A stretch of 64,000 bases of DNA. It comes from Candidatus Latescibacterota bacterium (GTDB taxonomy: Bacteria > Latescibacterota > UBA2968). The notes under the pieces are model-generated. The model was not told where the DNA came from. It made no database searches and was given only the letters and a program-made list of their open reading frames with translations. A program made the position numbers and the translations under genes. Positions 22,934 through 34,160 of this stretch are shown here, piece by piece. The stretch's first letter is position 1, and every line of letters starts with the position of its first letter. The DNA lies in contig OZ244960.1 of the NCBI GenBank assembly GCA_965222605.1, positions 1,920,001-1,984,000 of the forward strand. The letters are read 5' to 3'.

Positions 22934-23941
22934 TCAATCCCAGGTATAATCCGTCGCACCTTCTTCACACGCAAAAGCCGACTCGATCATCGTATTCAAA
23001 TCGCCTTGCGGACAATAATCAATCAGGCTCTTGGCTTTGCCAATGGCATGGTCGTACATGTATCGGAGGGGAACCACAACCTCGAGCGGATCAACCCCTC
23101 TTTTTTCTCCAATCAACCGCGCCCCTTCGGGAAATGGAAATGGCTCTGGCGCACCCGCATTAAACGACTCGCCCAGCGCCGCGCCAGAATTCAGCGCGCA
23201 AACCAGACAATGGGCAATATCGCGGGCATCCTGCGGCTGATAAAGCCATGGACGTCCGTCTTCATCGGTAATACTACACGGTTGCTGCGGAGAAACCGCT
23301 TTGGCTTCAATATCGTGCCAGAGTTCCGTACCGTCGGACATATAGAGTTCAGTGCCGGGCTTGCTCTGGCTTTTCTTCAGCGTATTGACCACGCGCGCAA
23401 CACTGAACTGATTCAAAATTTTGGTCCCGGACAAAACGTGACTCGGGCGCACAATCGAATAGCGCAAACCCGTCTCTCGAGCCGCGCGTTCTGCCATCAC
23501 CTCGCCGAAATACTTGGACATAGAATACTCGCCATCCGGCCGTTTGGGATGCAATTCATCAACCGGATGATAAGCACACGGAACATTTTCGCCATTATTG
23601 GGAAACACACCCGAAGAACTGGTATAAACATAGCGCTCGAGACGGTCAGCAACGCTCTCACACGCGCGTGTAACCTGAAGATTGATCTGATTGTTCAGTT
23701 CAAAATGCGGACCAACCAGATTGGCGGTGTGAATAACCGCGTCCATGCCTTGAACGGCATCTTTAATATAGGCGAGATCGGTCAAATCCCCTTCGCGCAA
23801 CTCAATATCGACACCATCGAGACGGCTGCGCGCGGGATCGTCGGGAAGAATGGTCCCCCGAACTTCACAATTTTGATCGAGCAACTGGCGCACCAGCCGG
23901 CAACCGACCTGTCCGGCAGCACCTGTAACGAGAACTTTCAT
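22934..23941 (-). CDS. NAD-dependent epimerase/dehydratase
   Basis: MKVLVTGAAGQVG, YTSS, YSMSK. Confidence 0.9.
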   Translation of the reverse strand: MKVLVTGAAGQVGCRLVRQLLDQNCEVRGTILPDDPARSRLDGVDIELREGDLTDLAYIKDAVQGMDAVIHTANLVGPHFELNNQINLQVTRACESVADRLERYVYTSSSGVFPNNGENVPCAYHPVDELHPKRPDGEYSMSKYFGEVMAERAARETGLRYSIVRPSHVLSGTKILNQFSVARVVNTLKKSQSKPGTELYMSDGTELWHDIEAKAVSPQQPCSITDEDGRPWLYQPQDARDIAHCLVCALNSGAALGESFNAGAPEPFPFPEGARLIGEKRGVDPLEVVVPLRYMYDHAIGKAKSLIDYCPQGDLNTMIESAFACEEGATDYTWD

Positions 23942-24048
23942 AAAAACTCCTTTGTAATTTTGATTTTTTGATGCCGTTTCAATCCAACACTGCCTGGAAG
24001 GGCAGAATAACGCCAACAGGCCAATCCGTCAAGTTAATCCGTCCCCTA

Positions 24049-24125
24049 CGGGCGGGCACGGGGGCACCGCCCCTACGATGATATTGTTAATCCGGTTTGT
24101 AGGGGCGACCCCTTGTGGTCGCCCG
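24049..24125. repeat. Inverted pair of GTAG-family REP-like palindromes (REPIN-like)
   Basis: CGGGCGGGCACGGGGGCACCGCCCCTAC ... GTAGGGGCGACCCCTTGTGGTCGCCCG. Confidence 0.7.
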
Positions 24126-24215
24126 CTAACTGCTGACCGCTGATCGCTACTTGCTAATAAACGAATTTAGAAGTAAATTATCCCTTGAACTAACCAAAAT
24201 AGGAAAGGACCGTCT

Positions 24216-25688
24216 ATGCGTATCTTGTACCTCGATCTCGACGCCTTAAATCCCACACACCTGGGCTGTTACGGATATCACCGCAACACATCGCCGACAA
24301 TTGACAAAATTGCAACCGAAGGCATTCGATTTAACCAGGTTTACACAACAGACGCCCCCTGCTTGCCATCGCGCACCGCATTTTATTCCGGGCAATTTGG
24401 CATTCATTCGGGCGTAGTAGGGCACGGCGGCACCGCGTCAGAACGGCGTAATAATGGACCAAACCGCGGTTTTCGAGATCGACTCGCCAATGAGGGACTG
24501 GCCGGATTCTTACAGCGTCAGGGCTTTAAAACATCCATGATCAGCCCCTTTGGACAGCGGCATGCCGCGTGGCATTTTTACGCGGGCTTCAACGAAATAC
24601 ACAACACCGGCAAAGGCGGCATGGAATCAGCCGAAGAAGTAACACCCGTAGTCGAAAAGTGGCTGAATGACAATGCCGCGGGCGACAACTGGTTTTTGCA
24701 CATCAACTACTGGGATGTACACACCCCCTACCGCGCACCTGCGCATTATGGCGAACCCTTTGCCGATGATCCCCTGCCGGACTGGTTGACCCCCGAATTG
24801 CTGGAAGAACACAAAAAGCTCGTCGGACCCCACACCGCGCAAGACATCATGATGTGGAATGACCGCCCCAATCCGCGCTTTTCCCGGCATCCCGGGCGCC
24901 TGGACAACATGGACGATTTGCGGCGGATGATCGATGGCTACGATACCGCGATCCGGTACGTAGATGATCAAATTGCCATCATTGTGGAAATATTGGAAAA
25001 CAAAGGCGTCCTGGACGACACGGCGATAATCATCAGCGCAGATCACGGCGAAAACATGGGCGAACTGGGCATATACGGCGAACACGGCACAGCCGATCAG
25101 GCGACCTGCCATATTCCGATGATTGTAAAGTGGCCGGGCGGGCAGTCTGGAATCACAGACGAGGGCCTGCATTACAATATTGATTTGTCACCCACATTAG
25201 CCGATCTTGTAGGCGGACAGAAACAAGCGTTGTGGGATGGCGAAAGTTATGCCACTGTCATTACCAAAGGCGCAGACGCCGGGCGCAGCGAATTGATCTT
25301 GAGCCAGTGCGCGCATGTGTGTCAGCGGGCTGTTCGCTTTGACGACTGGATCTATATCCGCACCTATCACGATGGATATCGGCTTTATCCACGCGAACTG
25401 TTATTTAACCTATCAGACGACCCCTGGGAAATGCGCGACGTATCGGCTGAAAATCCCGATATATGCCGCGAGGCTGCGTATCGGCTGATGAACTGGCACG
25501 ACCACATGATGGAAACCATGCCGCGGCCTTACGACAACGATCCCCTCTGGACAGTCATGCAAGAAGGCGGCCCAATGCACACCTGGGGTGCTTTCGAAGA
25601 CTATTGCGATCGCCTTGCAGAAACCGGCCGTGCAGAAGGCGCGGTCTTACTACGCGAAAAATTTGGAGATAAATACCGCCATCTATAA
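24216..25688 (+). CDS. Sulfatase (Cys-type)
   Basis: CLPSR formylglycine motif, ADHGE, HIPMIV. Confidence 0.92.
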   Translation: MRILYLDLDALNPTHLGCYGYHRNTSPTIDKIATEGIRFNQVYTTDAPCLPSRTAFYSGQFGIHSGVVGHGGTASERRNNGPNRGFRDRLANEGLAGFLQRQGFKTSMISPFGQRHAAWHFYAGFNEIHNTGKGGMESAEEVTPVVEKWLNDNAAGDNWFLHINYWDVHTPYRAPAHYGEPFADDPLPDWLTPELLEEHKKLVGPHTAQDIMMWNDRPNPRFSRHPGRLDNMDDLRRMIDGYDTAIRYVDDQIAIIVEILENKGVLDDTAIIISADHGENMGELGIYGEHGTADQATCHIPMIVKWPGGQSGITDEGLHYNIDLSPTLADLVGGQKQALWDGESYATVITKGADAGRSELILSQCAHVCQRAVRFDDWIYIRTYHDGYRLYPRELLFNLSDDPWEMRDVSAENPDICREAAYRLMNWHDHMMETMPRPYDNDPLWTVMQEGGPMHTWGAFEDYCDRLAETGRAEGAVLLREKFGDKYRHL

Positions 25689-25875
25689 AAGCAACCACAG
25701 AAAAAACGCGAGTAATTTGAGCGTTTTACACAGATGGACACAGATGGTATCTTGCAAATCCTGTAGAATGATGTACAACTGAACTTTTGTTGAAGTTAAT
25801 CCCAATCCAGGGGGCGGGGTGGTATCCTGTGGCATCCTGTTAATCCTGTTAATCCTGATCCAAAAGGAGTAAAAC

Positions 25876-26742
25876 ATGCTCACGCAAGAACAAATTGCGT
25901 TTTATCGCGAGCACGGGTATCTCGGTGTAGAGAACGTGCTAAGCGACGACGAGGTCAATGACCTGCGGCGGATTACCGATGAATTTGTAGAAAAATCGCG
26001 GGAAGTCACAGAACACACCGCAGTATTCGATCTCGAACCCGGGCACACGCCCGAAAACCCAAAATTGAGACGCTTAAAAAGTCCGATCTTGCTACATGAA
26101 GTATATCGCAAGACCCTGCATCACGAGAAAATTTTGGGAATCGTATCGCAATTGATCGGATACGGCCTGCGGTGCAATGGCAACAAACTGAACATGAAGC
26201 AACCCGGATACGGCAGCCCGGTCGAATGGCATCAAGATTGGGCATTTTATCCACATAGCAACGACGATTTGCTCGCCGTGGGCGTGGTGCTCGACGACAT
26301 GACAAAAGAAAATGGCCCCTTGCTCGTCATTCCCGGCTCGCACAAAGGGCCTGTGTACGACCATCACCTCGACGGCCATTTTTGCGGTGCCGTAACCGAT
26401 TCGACCTTTAGCGACAAAGGCGCCGTACCCGTAATGGTAAAAGCAGGAGGCATCACAATCCATCACGTACGCATGCTACACGGGTCAATATCCAATACAT
26501 CTGACAAACCCCGTCGGTTGCTCCTATTTCAATATTGCGCGATCGATGCGTATCCCCTATCGGGTATGAACAACTGGGAAGCGTTTAATGAGACAATCGT
26601 GCGCGGTGAGCCGACCAATATCCCGCGCGTAGAAGCCGTACCCGTGCGAATGCCCTGGCCGGGCGCACTCCGAACCGGATCCATTTACGAATCGCAAACC
26701 GTATTAAAAGAAACGAAATTTACCCAAACACAATACAAATAA
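25876..26742 (+). CDS. Phytanoyl-CoA dioxygenase (PhyH) family protein
   Basis: WHQD, ENGPLLVIPGSH, LHGS. Confidence 0.92.
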   Translation: MLTQEQIAFYREHGYLGVENVLSDDEVNDLRRITDEFVEKSREVTEHTAVFDLEPGHTPENPKLRRLKSPILLHEVYRKTLHHEKILGIVSQLIGYGLRCNGNKLNMKQPGYGSPVEWHQDWAFYPHSNDDLLAVGVVLDDMTKENGPLLVIPGSHKGPVYDHHLDGHFCGAVTDSTFSDKGAVPVMVKAGGITIHHVRMLHGSISNTSDKPRRLLLFQYCAIDAYPLSGMNNWEAFNETIVRGEPTNIPRVEAVPVRMPWPGALRTGSIYESQTVLKETKFTQTQYK

Positions 26743-26750
26743 CGAACGTC

Positions 26751-27071
26751 TCAATCCCGATAAGTAACAGCCGTGCCACTGGCACTAACCATAAGCATAT
26801 TGCCATCGCCAACAGTCTCGTAATCGAGATCCACGCCTACCACGGCATTGGAACCCAGATCGCGTGCCTCTTCGGTCATTTCCGCAATGGCAATATCTTT
26901 GGCTCTGCGGAGTTCTGCCTCATACGCGCCCGAACGCCCGCCAACAATATCGCGGATACTCGCAAAGAGATCCTTAAAAAAATTGGCACCCAAAATGGCT
27001 TCGCCAGTCACAATGCCCTGATAGCTATCAATTGTTTTTCCTTCAATATTGGGGGTTGTTACTACGAGCAT
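26751..27071 (-). CDS. ybjQ: UPF0145 / YbjQ family protein
   Basis: [12 protein letters not shown]...[12 protein letters not shown]...[11 protein letters not shown]. Confidence 0.9.
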
Positions 27072-27228
27072 AAAAGCCTCCTTTTATATTGTTTTTGATG
27101 GTCTCATCCGCAAAATATCGCATTGTATATCATCAGGCAAGGGCATAGGTAAAAATCGACATCTCAACCAACCACGCGAAAGCGCGTCCATCGCGTGAGG
27201 ACAGCATTAAAAACACAGGAGCTTTGAC

Positions 27229-28047
27229 ATGAACCAATTGAGCAAATCCATGCGGCAACAGTGGCAGGAACAGGGGTATTTACACCTCAAAAATGTAATC
27301 CCCAAAGATGAAGCAGAGGGATATCTCGACGCCGCCAATAAAGTAATCGCGAAGTACGAAGCCAAATATCCCGAGGTGCGCGAAAAAGGCGTCTATACCA
27401 TCATCCAAACGCTCTTCCGAACGAGCGGAATCGATGGGTTGATGGACCACCCCAACTTATTTGGCATTATCCTCGACCTGATGGGACCTTATCTCCAGAT
27501 CATGGGCTCGCAAATTTACGTGCGCTATCCAAATGACAAAGCCGATAATTTGATCGGCTGGCACACCGATGCCGGACGCTCATTGGCACAAACTCGGGTC
27601 ACGCCAGATAGTCTGCCATTGAACTTCAAAATTCAGTTCTTCCTCACAGATATACCACAAGAGAATTGTGCAAACTTCTGTCTGGTGCCCGGCAGCCATC
27701 GCCGCCCAATGCCCAAAGGGGCGCGCAATGAAACGCCACCAAGCGGGATACAACTGATTGCCGAAGCGGGAGACTGTGCGATCTTTCCAAATACCATGTG
27801 GCACGCGGTCGCGCCAAATCATACAGACGTCGTACGGCGCAGCATCACCTTCCGATATGGACAAATGTGGTGCCGACCTTATGATTACGAAAAGTGTCCC
27901 GAAGAAGTGCTATCCCGCATGACACCGCGCCGCCGCCGATTAATGGGCGATATGGGCGAGAACTACACGGCGACAGATTATTTCAAGCCGTCCGATCAGA
28001 TAAAAGTCATCATGGATGGCCTGGACTTTAAGTGTCCCAATGCTTAA
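27229..28047 (+). CDS. Phytanoyl-CoA dioxygenase (PhyH) family protein
   Basis: WHTD, VPGSH, WHAVAPN. Confidence 0.9.
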   Translation: MNQLSKSMRQQWQEQGYLHLKNVIPKDEAEGYLDAANKVIAKYEAKYPEVREKGVYTIIQTLFRTSGIDGLMDHPNLFGIILDLMGPYLQIMGSQIYVRYPNDKADNLIGWHTDAGRSLAQTRVTPDSLPLNFKIQFFLTDIPQENCANFCLVPGSHRRPMPKGARNETPPSGIQLIAEAGDCAIFPNTMWHAVAPNHTDVVRRSITFRYGQMWCRPYDYEKCPEEVLSRMTPRRRRLMGDMGENYTATDYFKPSDQIKVIMDGLDFKCPNA

Positions 28048-28060
28048 CAGCCAGTAAATC

Positions 28061-28094
28061 AAAAGCCTCGGATTGTTCCGAGGCTTTTTTTTTT
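28061..28094 (+). terminator. Intrinsic terminator
   Basis: AAAAGCCTCGGA-TTGT-TCCGAGGC followed by T10. Confidence 0.85.
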
Positions 28095-28102
28095 ATCCAT
28101 AC

Positions 28103-28128
28103 GACACTTTCGGGATGCAGACTCGTCT
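28103..28128 (+). promoter_or_regulatory. Possible ECF-type autoregulatory promoter
   Basis: GACACTT ... CGTC, resembling ECF -35/-10 elements, directly upstream of the ECF gene. Confidence 0.35.
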
Positions 28129-28171
28129 TTATAGTAAAACACGTGTGGATTGATTTCTTCTGGAGCAATTC

Positions 28172-29536
28172 GTGGAACAGATTGAAGACAGCGCACTCAT
28201 CGCCCGGATTCTGGATGGCGATCGCAAAGCATTCGCGGTTTTGGTGCATCGCTATTCGCGATATGTGTATGCCCAAATTGCCCGATCTGTGCGACTGGTT
28301 GATGACGTAGAAGACCTGGTCCAAATCGTATTTGTCAAAGTGTACGAAAATCTGCATCAGCTTCGCAATCCCGACCGATTTAGACCCTGGTTACACAGCA
28401 TCGTACGCAACGCCGTCAATTCTCATCATCGCTATCGAGCCGTGCAATTGCGGTTAGAAGAGACACTTTATCCAGAGCCTGCAACGCACGCTGAAGAAGA
28501 AATCAAACATGTTGTGCGCGCCGCGCTTCGCATCCTATCGGCTGAACACCGCCAGGTAATCGCCCATCACTATTTCAAAGGGTATTCTTACGCGGAAACA
28601 GCCGACCTCCTGAACCTCACGGTGGAAACCGTGCGCGGGCGTCTGAGGCGTGCGCGTCTAAAATTGAAAGGAGAGTTGCACAAAATGTCGGATACTCAAA
28701 TGCAAACAACTGAACTGGACCGCGCAGATATGGACGCGCTAAAAAAAGTAATCGGTTTTGTAAGCGACGACGAAAAACGCCCGATCTTGCAGGGCGTGTG
28801 TCTCGACATAGGCGGTCGCGCGACTGCGACCAACGGGCATATCATGATCATTCGCACATTGAAAAGCCTCACTGGACTCGCCGCACCCATTGTCATCGGA
28901 CCCTGGTCAGGCACTCAACTGCCCGAACAGGCCACAATGAAAATTGCGGAAACGACCGTGGAAATCCAGAGTAACGGCACAACCCTTCAAGTGCCCTTAA
29001 TCGAAGGCCCTTATGTCAAATATGAACAGGTCATCCCGCAAGAAGATCCCGCAATGCGAGTTTCTATCTCCTCGGCTCTTCTGACACACGCACTGGACTT
29101 ACTACAAAATTTCATGGAAGCGCGGCATCCAGAGTCGGACATGTGGCAATATCGTCCTCGGATAGATCTGCATCTCTCGCCATTGACCCAGACCATAACT
29201 TTTCTCACATCGCGGGATACGGGATATACCCGAGAGGATAATGGCAAATTCCAATATCTGCTTGACGCGAAAAATGACGACTCGCCAGGAGGCGTTGCAG
29301 ATTGGATATTTCAAGTACCGCTCAATGCCAAATTTGAAACATCATCAGAAGACACGCTCAGGTTCGCCGTGAACTTCGCGTATCTAAAAAAGATCCTGCA
29401 TGCGTTAGATTTCGAAGACAGCGATGAGATAATGCTGGAATTTAGAGAACAGGAAAAAGCGATCATCTTTCGCACGCCCTTGAACGCGGAATGGCTGGCA
29501 TTGTTAATGCCGTTGAGGCTGAAGTCAAAGGATTAA
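28172..29536 (+). CDS. ECF sigma-70 factor fused to a DNA polymerase III beta-clamp-like (middle plus C-terminal) domain
   Basis: Sigma2 (AFAVLVHRY, EDLVQIVF, FRPWL) and sigma4 (YSYAETA..TVRGRLRRAR); then DnaN-like SDDEKRPILQGV, ATNGH, LIEGPYVKYEQVIP, VNFAYL, LLMPLRL. Confidence 0.8.
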   Translation: MEQIEDSALIARILDGDRKAFAVLVHRYSRYVYAQIARSVRLVDDVEDLVQIVFVKVYENLHQLRNPDRFRPWLHSIVRNAVNSHHRYRAVQLRLEETLYPEPATHAEEEIKHVVRAALRILSAEHRQVIAHHYFKGYSYAETADLLNLTVETVRGRLRRARLKLKGELHKMSDTQMQTTELDRADMDALKKVIGFVSDDEKRPILQGVCLDIGGRATATNGHIMIIRTLKSLTGLAAPIVIGPWSGTQLPEQATMKIAETTVEIQSNGTTLQVPLIEGPYVKYEQVIPQEDPAMRVSISSALLTHALDLLQNFMEARHPESDMWQYRPRIDLHLSPLTQTITFLTSRDTGYTREDNGKFQYLLDAKNDDSPGGVADWIFQVPLNAKFETSSEDTLRFAVNFAYLKKILHALDFEDSDEIMLEFREQEKAIIFRTPLNAEWLALLMPLRLKSKD

Positions 29537-30566: not shown

Positions 30567-30824
30567 ATGAAGACGACGCCATACTTTCGCAACCGAACAC
30601 TTAGAGATCGACCTGAATTACAAAAATATCTGAAAGAAATTGCGGATGCAATAAACCATTATCATGCGATTGAACAGCAAGCAGATGGTCGCACACGGCG
30701 ATGGATTTACATCGCTGAAATTGACAAATATGTTCGCGTCGTTGTCGAAGCCGATGGAGAAACGATTCACAATGCATTTCCGGATCGCACGTACACGAAA
30801 AAAGAAAAACGAAAGGATCCTTGA
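30567..30824 (+). CDS. Putative RelE/DUF4258-like toxin
   Basis: Small basic protein QADGRTRRW...YVRVVVEADGETIHNAFPDR, upstream of a DUF2283-like gene. Confidence 0.6.
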   Translation: MKTTPYFRNRTLRDRPELQKYLKEIADAINHYHAIEQQADGRTRRWIYIAEIDKYVRVVVEADGETIHNAFPDRTYTKKEKRKDP

Positions 30825-30825
30825 T

Positions 30826-31272
30826 ATGAAATCCCTGGAGTATTTTCCCGAAACGGATACGCTTCATATTACACTGAGTTCAACATCTGCATCTGGTGGC
30901 GCAGAAAATGCCGGATCAGATGGCGAACATCCGGACATCATTTTGTCCTATAATGATAAAGATAAATTGGTATCTATTACAATTGAAAATGCCAGTAAGG
31001 GTGTGGATCTGAACGATATTCTTTCGGGACACGCAAAAATTTTACATGGAAAAATAGAAACCATTTATTCAATTTCAGAATTAGCGGAAAAATTGGACAT
31101 CACACCACGCACATTGCGCAATACCATCCATTCGATGCGGGCTTCGGGAATAGACATCGGCAAACAATACGGGCCTACATATCCCATTATCCTATCTGAA
31201 CCTGACGCGCAAAAAATTGTACAATGGCGCAGTGAACACCCAAGAGGCAGACCTAAATTGGCATCCGTTTAG
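30826..31272 (+). CDS. DUF2283-like antitoxin with C-terminal HTH
   Basis: YFPETDTLHI...LSYNDKDKLVSITIENAS, then YSISELAEKLDITPRTLR and RGRP; AAAGGA RBS. Confidence 0.65.
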   Translation: MKSLEYFPETDTLHITLSSTSASGGAENAGSDGEHPDIILSYNDKDKLVSITIENASKGVDLNDILSGHAKILHGKIETIYSISELAEKLDITPRTLRNTIHSMRASGIDIGKQYGPTYPIILSEPDAQKIVQWRSEHPRGRPKLASV

Positions 31273-31373
31273 ACAGAACGCTCAGGCATTCAACAGTCCC
31301 TGAGATTTGCAACATCACCCTGGAACCTAAACAACATGGCAACTCTTATGTCATAGCATTTAAGGATGAAGAC

Positions 31374-32420
31374 ATGGAATCTCATTCTGTTTGGCAATAT
31401 TTGGCACCGGCTGACCGCGAAACTTTTGTTTCAGGTACAATTTGTTGGCTTATGGATCCAAAAGGAGACCATGGTTTAGGTAATCAATTATTATCTGTGT
31501 TACTCGAAAAATTGGAATTATCAGCTAACACAAATTCAGAATTGACAATAAGACCCGAAGTAACCGAGGGCAGAGATAAACGATTCGATATTTGCGTATA
31601 TGAAAATGACAATCTAATTGCTGTTTTTGAGGTCAAATGCAAAACATCCGGAAGTCGAGAGCAAATTGAAAACTATGCACAAACACAGATAAGACTTGGA
31701 AGAATTGCATTTGACGAGTGGAATTTTCCCGACCTTAGTGAAGATAATCGCACGAATTACCCTCTCATAACCTTTGCAAAGTTGGCCAAAATTTTAAGCC
31801 AAATATCATCCGTAGAGAACAATCCATTTGTCTTCTCATTCGCAACTCATCTTCGGCAAGAGGCTGATTTCTTCAAAAAATTACAGGGTTTTTTTATTGA
31901 AGAAACAGAAGAAAAACCTCCCCAACTTCCAACCGTTCATCGTTTTTCTGAACGATTTTGCAATCAACTATTCTGGCATTGGTTCAAAGAACAGAGCTGG
32001 GAAAAAAATCGGTTAAATACCGAGTGGACGACGAGATCCGAATATTCCGGTGTATGGTTCGCGTTTGAGGAAATAAGAATAGCAGAATCTCTATCGCTAT
32101 CCGAATTAAATCTGACATTGTCAGGCTCATTTTCGTACTGGATTCATATTGAATTAACAAATGGGACAGGTGGTATATTAGGCGAAAGAGGCGCGGAAGT
32201 TGGAAAAATTGAAATGGGAATTTATAACGATACAAACTGTCGGAATGATCTTTTCGATCAGATTCAAAACGCAGATCTTGGTTGTAAGTTTCATTCAGCC
32301 CAAAAGCGTCCTGCTCCAACATACTCGTACTGGAAAGCTCTCCGTTGCCCTTTAAAATTAGAAGATTTTCGTTTCTCAAAATTACACAAATTGATCGCAT
32401 TGCTTATACCACCAGAGTAA
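31374..32420 (+). CDS. PD-(D/E)XK nuclease family protein (PDDEXK_4-like)
   Basis: ETFVS..ICWLMDPKGDHGLG, RFDI...FEVK...EQIENY. Confidence 0.75.
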   Translation: MESHSVWQYLAPADRETFVSGTICWLMDPKGDHGLGNQLLSVLLEKLELSANTNSELTIRPEVTEGRDKRFDICVYENDNLIAVFEVKCKTSGSREQIENYAQTQIRLGRIAFDEWNFPDLSEDNRTNYPLITFAKLAKILSQISSVENNPFVFSFATHLRQEADFFKKLQGFFIEETEEKPPQLPTVHRFSERFCNQLFWHWFKEQSWEKNRLNTEWTTRSEYSGVWFAFEEIRIAESLSLSELNLTLSGSFSYWIHIELTNGTGGILGERGAEVGKIEMGIYNDTNCRNDLFDQIQNADLGCKFHSAQKRPAPTYSYWKALRCPLKLEDFRFSKLHKLIALLIPPE

Positions 32421-32835: not shown

Positions 32836-34160
32836 GGTCAAGTCCAAAAAGTTCTGTAAAAAGGTAGCTCCGTGATAGGGGTCAGTGATTTTGTTTCAAG
32901 TACGTCATGTCCAGATAGCGTCTGCCAGCGATCCACTCGTCAGACCACTCCATACACAAGGCGCCGATCAGGCGTTCACAGGCTTTCTCGTTGGGGAAGA
33001 TCTGGACGACATCAGCCCGTCTTTTGATCTCACGATTGAGTCTTTCCAAAAGGTTGGTGGTACGGATGCGTTTGCGATGCTGTTGTGGAAAGTCCAGGCA
33101 CGTCAGGCAATGCGCCACATCGCGGTCTATTTTGTCCACGAGTTTGGGTAGTACATTTTCATAGGTATCCATCATGTCTGATAGGCGTCGCTGTGCGGTG
33201 TTGCGATCGGGCGCGTTAAAAACGTCTTTGAGCGCATCGGCGACCTCGCGTTGATGCTTAGGGGGTGTGATGCCTCTGATATTTCGGTGAAAATGGGTTT
33301 GACAATGCTGCCAAGAGGCCCCTTGGAAGTGTCGTTTGATGGCGTTTTGTAATCCTTCATGGTGGTCAGAGATGACGAGTTGCACGCCCTTTAACCCTCG
33401 CTTTTTAAGGTCTTTAAACAAGGACGTGTAGGTGGCTTCTGTCTCGGTGTGTGCCACATCGAGTGATAGGATGTCTCGGTGTCCACTCTCTGAGATGCCA
33501 GTCACGATTAAGACCCCCTCAGAGACGACCTGTCCCCCAGATCGGATGTAGAGATAGGTCGCATCAATGATCAGGTAAGGGTATGCCTGTTCAAGCGGTC
33601 GCGCTCGCCAAGCCTGGATGTCTGCATCAAGTTCTTGACACAGGTCAGACACCTGAGACTTTGAAAAGGAGGTACCACACAACTGTTCTGTAATCTTAGT
33701 CACTTTGCGTGTGGAGACCCCTTGCAGATACGCCTCTTGAAGGGCAAGAATCAGGGCTTTTTCACTGCGTTGAAAGCGCGCAAATAATCCACTGTGGAAC
33801 CGTCCTTCTCGATCTTGAGGGACGCTCAGTTCGATACGGCCAACGCGCGTTTTGACAATACGGGGTTTATATCCATTACGGTAGCCCGTACGATCTGTCG
33901 TGCGTTGGTAGGGTTCTGCCTGTAAAAACGTGCTGATCTCCGCTTCGAGAAACTGCTGGAGGAAGCGTGTCACGGCCTGATTGAGAAAATCAGGATCATT
34001 CAAAAGTGCAAATTGCTCTGGCGAAGAAATTTTAATATCTTTGGGGTAAGTCATCGTAGCCTCCAAGTTAGGGTTTATACTACTTTGTCACCCCTATTTT
34101 AAGATTTTTCTCGGAGCTACGGTGACTTTTTCAATTTTACAGAAATATATGGACTCTATC
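32836..34160 (-). mobile_element. IS256-family insertion sequence
   Basis: Imperfect 26-bp TIRs (GGTCAAGTCCAAAAAGTTCTGTAAAA / GATAGAGTCCATATATTTCTGTAAAA); 8-bp TSD AAATTATG at 32828-32835 and 34161-34168. Confidence 0.93.
32882..34066 (-). CDS. IS256-family (Mutator) DDE transposase
   Basis: RNGY, VPQDREG, GVSTRKV, IDA, ISDHHEGL, QHCQTHF, RTTNLLERLNREIKRR. Confidence 0.95.
   Translation of the reverse strand: MEATMTYPKDIKISSPEQFALLNDPDFLNQAVTRFLQQFLEAEISTFLQAEPYQRTTDRTGYRNGYKPRIVKTRVGRIELSVPQDREGRFHSGLFARFQRSEKALILALQEAYLQGVSTRKVTKITEQLCGTSFSKSQVSDLCQELDADIQAWRARPLEQAYPYLIIDATYLYIRSGGQVVSEGVLIVTGISESGHRDILSLDVAHTETEATYTSLFKDLKKRGLKGVQLVISDHHEGLQNAIKRHFQGASWQHCQTHFHRNIRGITPPKHQREVADALKDVFNAPDRNTAQRRLSDMMDTYENVLPKLVDKIDRDVAHCLTCLDFPQQHRKRIRTTNLLERLNREIKRRADVVQIFPNEKACERLIGALCMEWSDEWIAGRRYLDMTYLKQNH

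Follow-up and report, generated by a model that had tools for sequence, protein, structure and literature searches.

In one class of sigma factors with extracytoplasmic function (ECF), the sigma2-sigma4 core is followed by a C-terminal domain longer than 50 aa, an anti-sigma gene is not seen nearby and the promoter is autoregulatory. The sections of the ECF reclassification that deal with such extensions describe SnoaL-like domains in ECF41, ECF56 and ECF294/295, TPR in ECF42, Cys-rich domains in ECF238, 287 and 288, and DUF1835 in ECF264; in these sections the extensions accompany the lack of anti-sigma factors, and in the known groups they are thought to contact the core or the linker (PMC7826278). 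Here we analysed a gene that encodes an ECF sigma factor fused to a two-domain module derived from the bacterial sliding clamp DnaN. It lies in a stretch of 64,000 nucleotides from a Candidatus Latescibacterota bacterium (GenBank assembly GCA_965222605.1, contig OZ244960.1, positions 1,920,001 to 1,984,000 of the forward strand), which is called the window below. By its sequence the protein belongs to the ECFs with a C-terminal extension, and the type of extension is new within the literature searched. It differs from the described types in being a module of DnaN domains II and III, and its ligands would probably bind in a peptide cleft of the kind that the replisome uses as well.

Phages T4 (gp45, gp55, gp33) and Mu (MuC and the host clamp) also link a clamp-fold protein to promoter-specificity machinery. 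In these systems the clamp is a separate DNA-loaded ring that is bound via short motifs on transcription factors, and the parts of the two reports that treat this link let it run through the peptide cleft of the clamp (PMC7892883, PMC12867686). In contrast, the clamp part of the protein described here is covalently fused, chromosomal and, by the matches listed, of DnaN instead of gp45 descent. A clamp-type extension is absent from the main text of the reclassification, and the part of the supplement that was covered has one unrelated mention; other supplements may list one (PMC7826278). The terms clamp and DnaN were not found in the part of a review that was covered (PMC8999054). Our literature search found no description of an ECF sigma factor fused to a DnaN or sliding-clamp module (one unrelated 'clamp-like' paper matched), which agrees with the original prediction, made from the DNA letters of the window, that no characterised clamp fusion was known. 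Public records name the proteins 'sigma-70 family RNA polymerase sigma factor' or 'hypothetical protein', and because these names mention nothing else, the clamp part is invisible in annotation.

A sigma factor fused to two clamp domains

Residues 1-170 are assigned by domain libraries as a complete ECF sigma factor, as the original prediction had claimed. The TIGR02937 sigma70-ECF model scored 90.5 bits (cut-off 42.9), and Pfam regions 2 and 4.2 were both matched (Table 1). Sigma2 and sigma4 were the only sigma regions found, which is the composition of the ECF group (group IV), whose core of about 170-200 aa lacks regions 1.1 and 3, and the closest solved relatives of this part are RpoE-type ECF sigmas. 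The start codon is GTG; orthologues start at the same place, with ATG in L006 and L018. A linker of 6-8 residues separates sigma4 from the module, and 280 residues follow residue 171, far more than the 50 aa that define a C-terminal extension. None of the described extension types (SnoaL_2, TPR, Cys-rich, DUF1835, transmembrane) was matched in the Pfam scan of the protein. Mean net charges over 37 sequences are -12.5 for the acidic module and +5.2 for the basic sigma part.

The module was matched only weakly when it was searched as a single sequence. Pfam DNA_pol3_beta_2 (16.6 bits, E 0.0097) and DNA_pol3_beta_3 (12.6 bits, E 0.13) both stayed below the cut-off of 27, and the PDB clamp 7ybd was matched at E 0.0014. 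A profile of 18 C-terminal modules matched 55 distinct PDB clamp sequences (best E 3.2e-18) and aligned with residues 126-268 and 314-366 of E. coli beta. PHROG 947, 'DNA polymerase processivity factor', was matched at E 8.5e-20. A phmmer search of 1.84 billion representatives gave 190 matches at E <= 1e-3; family members led, and the next were ordinary DnaNs of 360-400 aa, matched over domain II and the C-terminus. AlphaFold2 models were built with 19 sequences (pLDDT 78.4, pTM 0.59) and with 37 fused homologues (pLDDT 86.0, pTM 0.68). Foldseek ranked beta clamps at the top for the model (7ybd, E 1.5e-14), and VIA-align placed model residues 177-451 on clamp residues ~125-366 with Z 19.6-23.4 and rmsd 2.3-3.5 A over 223-236 aligned residues (50 entries listed). 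Because the profile, PHROG, Foldseek and VIA-align tests settle the weak single-sequence matches, the module is identified, by profile and model, as DnaN domains II and III without domain I. The clamp fold that the original prediction had expected of the C-terminus was recovered in this way, and the hallmarks SDDEKRPILQGV, ATNGH, LIEGPYVKYEQVIP, VNFAYL and LLMPLRL were all found in the order it had given. All sequence and fold matches listed were bacterial DnaN, and no PCNA or gp45 was among the matches listed; a distant kinship may still exist.

The module shares with DnaN the domain II/III fold, the motifs RP-LQG, ATDG-R-L, IEG-Y---VIP and LLMPLRL, and the overall acidity. It differs from DnaN in several respects. 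Domain I is absent, so the three DnaN domains (PF00712, PF02767, PF02768) do not occur together in one chain. Domain II lacks its second channel-lining helix and has a conserved LGPW loop in its place (residues 241-245; G243 kept in 30/37 and P244 in 28/37 fused homologues), and the remaining channel helices have few conserved basic residues. Domain III' carries family-specific motifs, with near-invariant residues that have no DnaN counterpart, namely H319 and P320 (35/37 each), Y327 and P329 (36/37 each), G351 (36/37), Y352 (35/37) and W378 (37/37). In the model each protomer has two clamp domains, as in the two-domain ring clamps PCNA and T4 gp45. A complex prediction with three module copies scored 0.01 against a mark of 0.42, without controls, and speaks neither for nor against a ring. 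The original prediction had also suggested a PCNA-like trimer; no positive evidence was obtained for it, and the replacement of the domain II channel helix by the LGPW loop speaks against it. A surface loop of domain III', near residue ~394 (nt ~29353), shows an indel polymorphism among orthologues (P0002, P0010, P0014): in part of the genus, 12 further residues (RLNGSEERPVVH) stand between EDTL and RFAVNF, and these proteins are 466-468 aa long instead of 454.

The host genome, one 6.34-Mb contig, has a 394-aa three-domain dnaN beside recF, ~1.1 Mb from the fusion gene. Since this normal dnaN is present, the fusion module is a paralogue and not the replicative clamp; it is 27% identical to the host DnaN (BLASTP E 5e-13). 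DnaN is typically encoded by a single essential copy in the dnaN-recF neighbourhood, whereas the fusion gene is joined to a sigma factor, lies outside this locus and is dispensable in the genus.

At the junction of the two parts stands an in-frame ATG (Met172), from which, according to the original prediction, the clamp part alone could be made. The ATG and the AAGGAG before it are present (Table 1), and the Met and the purine-rich stretch recur in 8/8 homologues printed. The product itself gained no support from synonymous sites: no excess of third-position conservation was found before ATG 28685 among 15 distinct genus-level ORFs, and the segment from codon 165 fell at the 46th percentile. 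Most 'stand-alone' forms in databases are truncations on 1-kb contigs. P0031, P0044 and P0040 fall into 90% clusters whose other members include proteins of 466, 449 and 362 aa, and the source contigs of P0031, P0032 and P0044 are just 969-1388 nt long. The stand-alone forms P0027 (292 aa, contig of 10,988 nt) and P0040 (284 aa, contig of 46,547 nt) may be real.

Table 1. Positions of the features of the fusion gene and its upstream region in the window
Feature	Position	Strand	Basis
Terminator-like hairpin and T-run ending the upstream PhyH gene (12-bp stem, 6 GC pairs)	28061..28088	+	hairpin reading
Candidate autoregulated ECF promoter, GACACTTTC (-35) N12 (A)CTCGTC (-10)	28103..28127	+	conserved motif
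Shine-Dalgarno GGAG, 6 nt 5' of GTG	28162..28165	+	read from sequence
Whole coding sequence, ECF sigma and DnaN-derived two-domain module, 454 aa	28172..29536	+	ORF, domain libraries, models
Sigma70_r2 (PF04542), residues 24-89	28241..28438	+	Pfam E 3.1e-12
Family-specific sigma2-sigma4 linker motif YRAVQLRLEE, residues 88-97	28433..28462	+	alignment
Sigma70_r4_2 (PF08281), residues 115-165, -35-reading helix-turn-helix	28514..28666	+	Pfam E 1.2e-12
Candidate internal start at the sigma/module junction, AAGGAG (28668-28673) and in-frame ATG 28685 (Met172)	28668..28687	+	read from sequence
Module domain II' (DnaN domain II), residues 177-290, with SDDEKRPILQGV, ATNGH, LIEGPYVKYEQVIP	28700..29041	+	profile, alignment, model
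Module domain III' (DnaN domain III), residues 291-451, ends LLMPLRL	29042..29524	+	alignment, model

The peptide-binding cleft and the sigma linker

The residues that we take to line the peptide cleft of E. coli beta are largely kept in the module. The equivalents are R152=R203, L155=L206, T172=T220, G174=G222, L177=M225, V247=V287, M362=M446 (kept in 33/37 fused homologues), P363=P447 (36/37), R365=R449 (29/37) and L366=L450. Two positions depart from DnaN: the equivalent of H175 is variable, and that of P242 is V.

DnaN and module were then compared in pairs in 13 of 63 genomes, which we picked to span families f1, f2 and f4. At the P242 position all 13 class DnaNs have V (LIEGPYV), and all 13 paired modules have V or L. 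Among 16 DnaN rows from outside these genomes, 15 have P, and the exception (P0029) groups with the class DnaNs. P is also found in the 10 modules of the other subclade and in P0046 and P0049, and a metagenome-assembled genome (MAG) labelled Pseudomonadales has P in both its DnaN (VDGQFPDY) and its module (IAGDFPDY). At the H175 position the DnaN/module states are H/H in genus g1 and in the Pseudomonadales MAG, and A/A in three f2 genomes. The eight f4 genomes comprise S/S three times and the mismatches T/S, S/M and, three times, S/A.

Gene conversion does not explain this match, because only 59/164 third codon positions agree between DnaN and module at identical residues of the two motif segments. 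In a quick IQ-TREE analysis of 33 modules and 30 DnaNs (rows picked by us), modules and DnaNs formed two separate groups (SH-aLRT 99). A tree uniting all modules with the Latescibacterota DnaNs was 35.7 log-likelihood units worse (p-AU 0.017), for a group that was named after the tree had been seen and with long branches in play. By these two values, a recent origin of the module from the class's own DnaN is not an obvious explanation. The agreement between the two proteins is suggestive of the same constraint acting on the module cleft and on the host clamp cleft. A shared constraint would in turn point to shared ligands, either clients that bear a clamp-binding motif (CBM) or the clamp loader.

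The class DnaNs are themselves unusual at these places. They have V for P in the G-x-F-P-D-Y motif (L004, L056-L067), and in two families A or S/T for the His of ATDGHRL. This is a hint that the clamp-binding motifs of these bacteria may be unusual.

Another family-specific element lies in the linker between sigma2 and sigma4. Its consensus is RRRxVQ-h-x-[LFWMY]. At least 90% of the 37 fused homologues retain Q92, and the motif is absent from 14 non-fused sigma relatives. It resembles the clamp-binding motif Q-L-x-L-F, and divergent members have QLRLF (P0062) and QMELF (P0124) at the same place.

Promoter, neighbourhood and distribution

The candidate promoter that the original prediction had placed at 28103-28128 is present and belongs to a conserved motif. 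The family consensus is GAYACTTTY-N12-GCRTC, with a constant 13 nt between ACTTT and CRTC. It stands 5' of the fusion gene in 9/11 distinct loci with 35-45% protein identity (the window, L036, L037, L038, L039, L022, L023, L045 and L049); L044 has a near match (ACCTTT) and L040 has none. We estimated the chance of a motif match at ~0.03 per 260-nt upstream region. Because the motif is kept across homologues of 35-45% identity, the sigma factor probably drives its own gene. The conserved ECF-type promoter motif also shows that selection acts on the sigma part in its role as a sigma factor.

A position weight matrix (PWM) made from the promoter sites ranked the gene's own promoter first in the 6.34-Mb genome, and among the 48 best PWM matches it alone is intergenic with a downstream gene. 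A looser search for ACTTT-N13-CGTC gave 28 matches, below the chance estimate of ~48, and four other 'mid' motif matches in the genome were unconvincing. These motif scans are crude, and weaker target promoters could be missed. The promoter scan also picked up, as noise, a near-identical 22-mer, ACTTTAGTCG[T/A]GGGAGCACGTC, at three + strand positions of the genome beyond the window (1144986, 1886523 and 5828442), which probably belongs to a repeated element.

The gene is predicted to be isolated as its own transcription unit by the hairpin that ends the upstream gene (Table 1), and a similar hairpin lies 5' of the promoter motif in orthologous loci. Its upstream neighbour encodes a PhyH-family dioxygenase and its downstream neighbour is a convergent DHDPS-family gene. 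This context is kept in the genus only, across which the PhyH gene directly 5' is syntenic; in other families the neighbours are Clp protease, aminotransferase, ABC-2 permease or tRNA synthetase genes. No anti-sigma Pfam family was found beside the gene in the window, L036, L037, L039 or L040; small or undescribed anti-sigma factors may be encoded elsewhere in the genome. No conserved partner gene stands beside the fusion gene across the compared lineages.

The distribution of the gene was surveyed in 168 species genomes of Candidatus Latescibacterota. Strong module matches (E <= 4.9e-25) were found in 66/168 genomes, all in the class of the window's genome, and the remaining 29 'matches' were weak matches to true dnaN. 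By family, they occurred in 16/31 genomes of f1 (counting the window's own genome and the G086 remnant), 18/22 of f2, 2/3 of f3 and 30/76 of f4, and in 0/36 genomes of other classes. Uninterrupted frames of 422-510 aa were present in 63/66 strong matches; the exceptions are G039 (370 aa), G086 (remnant) and G060 (in-frame TAG). A word-based search gave 29 matches, 23 with sigma domains, 4 without and 2 DnaN. When the sigma part was the sole query, the same fusion was retrieved exclusively, down to E 6e-41. Neither this search nor a profile search gave a sigma factor with three clamp domains, and P0212 (559 aa) proved unrelated outside its sigma part. Fusion is therefore the rule in this family, and the homologues are not the two separate genes that, according to the original prediction, would have told against a fusion.

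Within the genus the gene is kept in 15/21 genomes, missing from 5/21 and a remnant in 1. Among the five genomes without it, four have DnaN-level matches alone and one has none; the remnant, at G086:C1:4852481-4852669, comprises 63 module residues within a 145-aa frame. The remnant and the DnaN-level or missing matches in the five genomes indicate, at the level of sequence comparison, that the gene was lost recently in parts of the genus.

Outside the phylum there is one fused copy, in the MAG labelled Pseudomonadales (L040, 31% identity). The best Atlas cluster (score 0.98; 485 aa, with sigma domains), in which Gemmatimonadota is the commonest phylum, is an unverified lead to a wider range. 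In metagenomes, fused copies were found in loci L044, L045, L048 and L049, and the metagenome scan gave no stand-alone copy. The metagenome contigs L046 and L047 carry one broken copy, in which the sigma part ends early and the first ~44 residues of the module are gone; a second, unrelated ECF sigma gene lies directly downstream of it.

Close relatives (90-99% identity) occur in contigs of four metatranscriptomic libraries, from sponge and coral, in three studies. One RNA-library contig, X19 (record 8, 800 nt), spans the sigma/module junction; DNA may have been carried over into these libraries. Another begins near the -10 element and a further one upstream of the promoter; such contigs cannot show transcript starts.

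The wider surroundings of the gene in the window were also read. Upstream, at 22934-28047, lie genes for an NAD-dependent epimerase, a sulfatase, two PhyH-family dioxygenases and a YbjQ-family protein. Beyond the DHDPS-family gene, a cluster at 30567-32420 comprises an 85-aa ORF without a family match, an overlapping DUF2283 and HTH protein (202 aa) and a PD-(D/E)XK-family nuclease-like protein (348 aa), and may be a small mobile or defence-type island; PADLOC found no defence families. An intact Mutator-family (IS256-like) transposase gene follows at 32882-34066 (-) (PF00872, E 2.5e-124).

Proposed regulation by the module and its meaning

The explanation that we put forward, tentatively and short of calling it probable, is that the module is a built-in regulatory extension which uses the peptide cleft of the clamp. 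The protein would be a working, self-activating ECF sigma factor whose separate anti-sigma partner has been replaced by the fused module, and this module would retain the inter-domain hydrophobic cleft that binds CBM peptides in DnaN. In the resting state, the cleft might hold the Q-h-x-[LFW] motif of the linker in cis, or the acidic module might pack on the basic sigma domains, and the sigma factor would then be unable to engage core RNA polymerase productively. CBM-bearing host proteins, i.e. the clients of the host DnaN, or cleft-directed molecules could compete for the cleft and act as the switch; alternatively, the cleft might sense CBM peptides directly. Once freed, the sigma factor would transcribe from GAYACTTTY-N12-GCRTC promoters including its own, giving positive feedback. 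The architecture, the fold, the conserved fusion, the upstream motif, the lack of a conserved neighbour and the cleft match come from the data; we infer any binding, the signal and the sense in which the switch works. The original prediction of a sensor for clamp-binding peptides has gained indirect support, in that most cleft residues are kept, two cleft positions match the host DnaN lineage-wise and the linker carries its motif.

Several observations weigh against this proposal. The H175 equivalent takes the states H, A, S, M, V, F, C and R in the family, and it differs from the host DnaN in 5/8 f4 genomes. The co-variation of the clefts amounts to about two independent events, as kin are not independent, and the choice of the tested group after the tree had been seen adds to this weakness. 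MPLRL and GPYV might be conserved for structural reasons alone. The linker is unlike canonical QL[SD]LF: position 5 is mostly E or Q, and a helix is predicted for the segment, in contrast to the extended form of clamp-bound peptides. With a mostly acidic position 5 and this helix prediction, the likeness to the clamp-binding motif is a lead and not a match. The AlphaFold2 models reach pTM values of only 0.59 and 0.68, with low confidence for the linker beyond residue 100. A strict motif search of the genome for a regulon found the gene's own promoter alone. Finally, the fusion gene is dispensable within the genus, as it is absent from 5/21 genus genomes and a remnant in one more.

The module might instead be a cis-acting inhibitory or stabilising domain with a vestigial cleft, comparable to SnoaL_2 in ECF41/56 or TPR in ECF42, an explanation that we consider unlikely. 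The DnaN cleft residues would then persist just to hold the fold, and family-specific surfaces of domain III' (RHP, W-x-Y-x-P, GY, DW-F) would respond to an unknown signal or to proteolysis. It would agree with the position of the most invariant residues of the family (the H319-W378 set), which lie outside the DnaN-like motifs, with the variable H175 equivalent and with a subclade of modules that ends MPIA or MPVG, without the final R-L of the clamp. As far as the extension groups covered in the reclassification go, the missing conserved anti-sigma neighbour is compatible with regulation by an extension of any kind (PMC7826278). It leaves unexplained, however, why the module agrees with the host DnaN of each lineage at the P242 and H175 positions in the absence of gene conversion, and why the family has its own Q-h-x-[LFW] linker motif. 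The same match, and the retained cleft, would suit a recruitment adaptor that ties replication or repair enzymes with a CBM to RNA polymerase at sigma-dependent promoters, or the sigma factor to such proteins, while the sigma factor is regulated elsewhere and serves a small regulon coupled to DNA repair or replication. With a linker of 6-8 residues after sigma4, the module would sit by the upstream DNA in the holoenzyme, to judge from ECF holoenzyme structures. But the genome motif scans found no regulon and no partner gene is conserved nearby, and positive autoregulation without a brake is unusual for ECF sigmas; we regard an adaptor as quite unlikely.

Improbable in our judgement is a cellular version of T4 late transcription, in which the two-domain module assembles into a ring, either as a homotrimer or mixed with a module-only product of the internal start at ATG 28685. 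Loaded via the conserved cleft by the clamp loader of the host, this ring would hold the sigma-RNA polymerase complex on DNA for a one-dimensional search of promoters. Clamp loaders use the peptide cleft of the clamp, so a host-matching cleft would suit the host clamp loader; T4 gp45, like the module, has two domains per protomer, and the Met and purine-rich stretch recur at the junction. Clamps are described to activate transcription in T4 (PMC7892883, PMC2988020) and in Mu (PMC12867686), in the parts of these reports that deal with it. Against a ring stand the LGPW loop in place of the domain II channel helix, the few conserved basic residues on the remaining helices, the lack of synonymous constraint before ATG 28685 and the truncation artefacts among most stand-alone forms; three sigma factors per ring would also be awkward. 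In a wider form, which we hold to be just as improbable, the protein would be a cellular counterpart of the T4 system, a sigma factor with its own clamp subunit that is loaded as a ring alone or mixed, or is plugged into the client network of the replisome via a cleft that co-evolves with the host DnaN. The least probable explanation, to which we give only a slim chance, makes the module the output: the sigma factor would mainly drive its own gene, and the accumulating module, fused or made from the internal start, would as a decoy sequester clamp clients and slow down replication or repair in some kind of stress. That the gene's own promoter is the sole motif match in the genome, and that the cleft is kept and matches the host DnaN, would agree with a decoy. 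But the motif scans are crude, the internal start is without evidence, and the sigma domains are conserved like the module (97% versus 93% identity in P0002), which suggests a real transcriptional role.

Regulation by the cleft, if it occurs, and the ancestry of the module as such bear on how ECF sigma factors are controlled. ECF sigmas rank among the main routes of signal transduction in bacteria, and little is known of how their fused extensions sense signals. The ancestry of this module names a testable class of ligands, the peptides that dock polymerases, repair enzymes and the clamp loader on the clamp. To our knowledge, a link between sigma factor and clamp has so far been known from phages T4 and Mu alone. 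If the cleft is used, the protein would be the first cellular sigma factor that is read out by, or reads, the client network of the replisome. If the T4-like or client-network explanation were true, the search for promoters or the activity of the sigma factor would be coupled directly to replication. As a natural two-domain and probably non-ring DnaN fragment, the module would also be useful for studies of clamp-peptide recognition and of clamp-targeting antibiotics. In its host, an uncultured marine bacterium, the fusion may tie gene control to the replication machinery.

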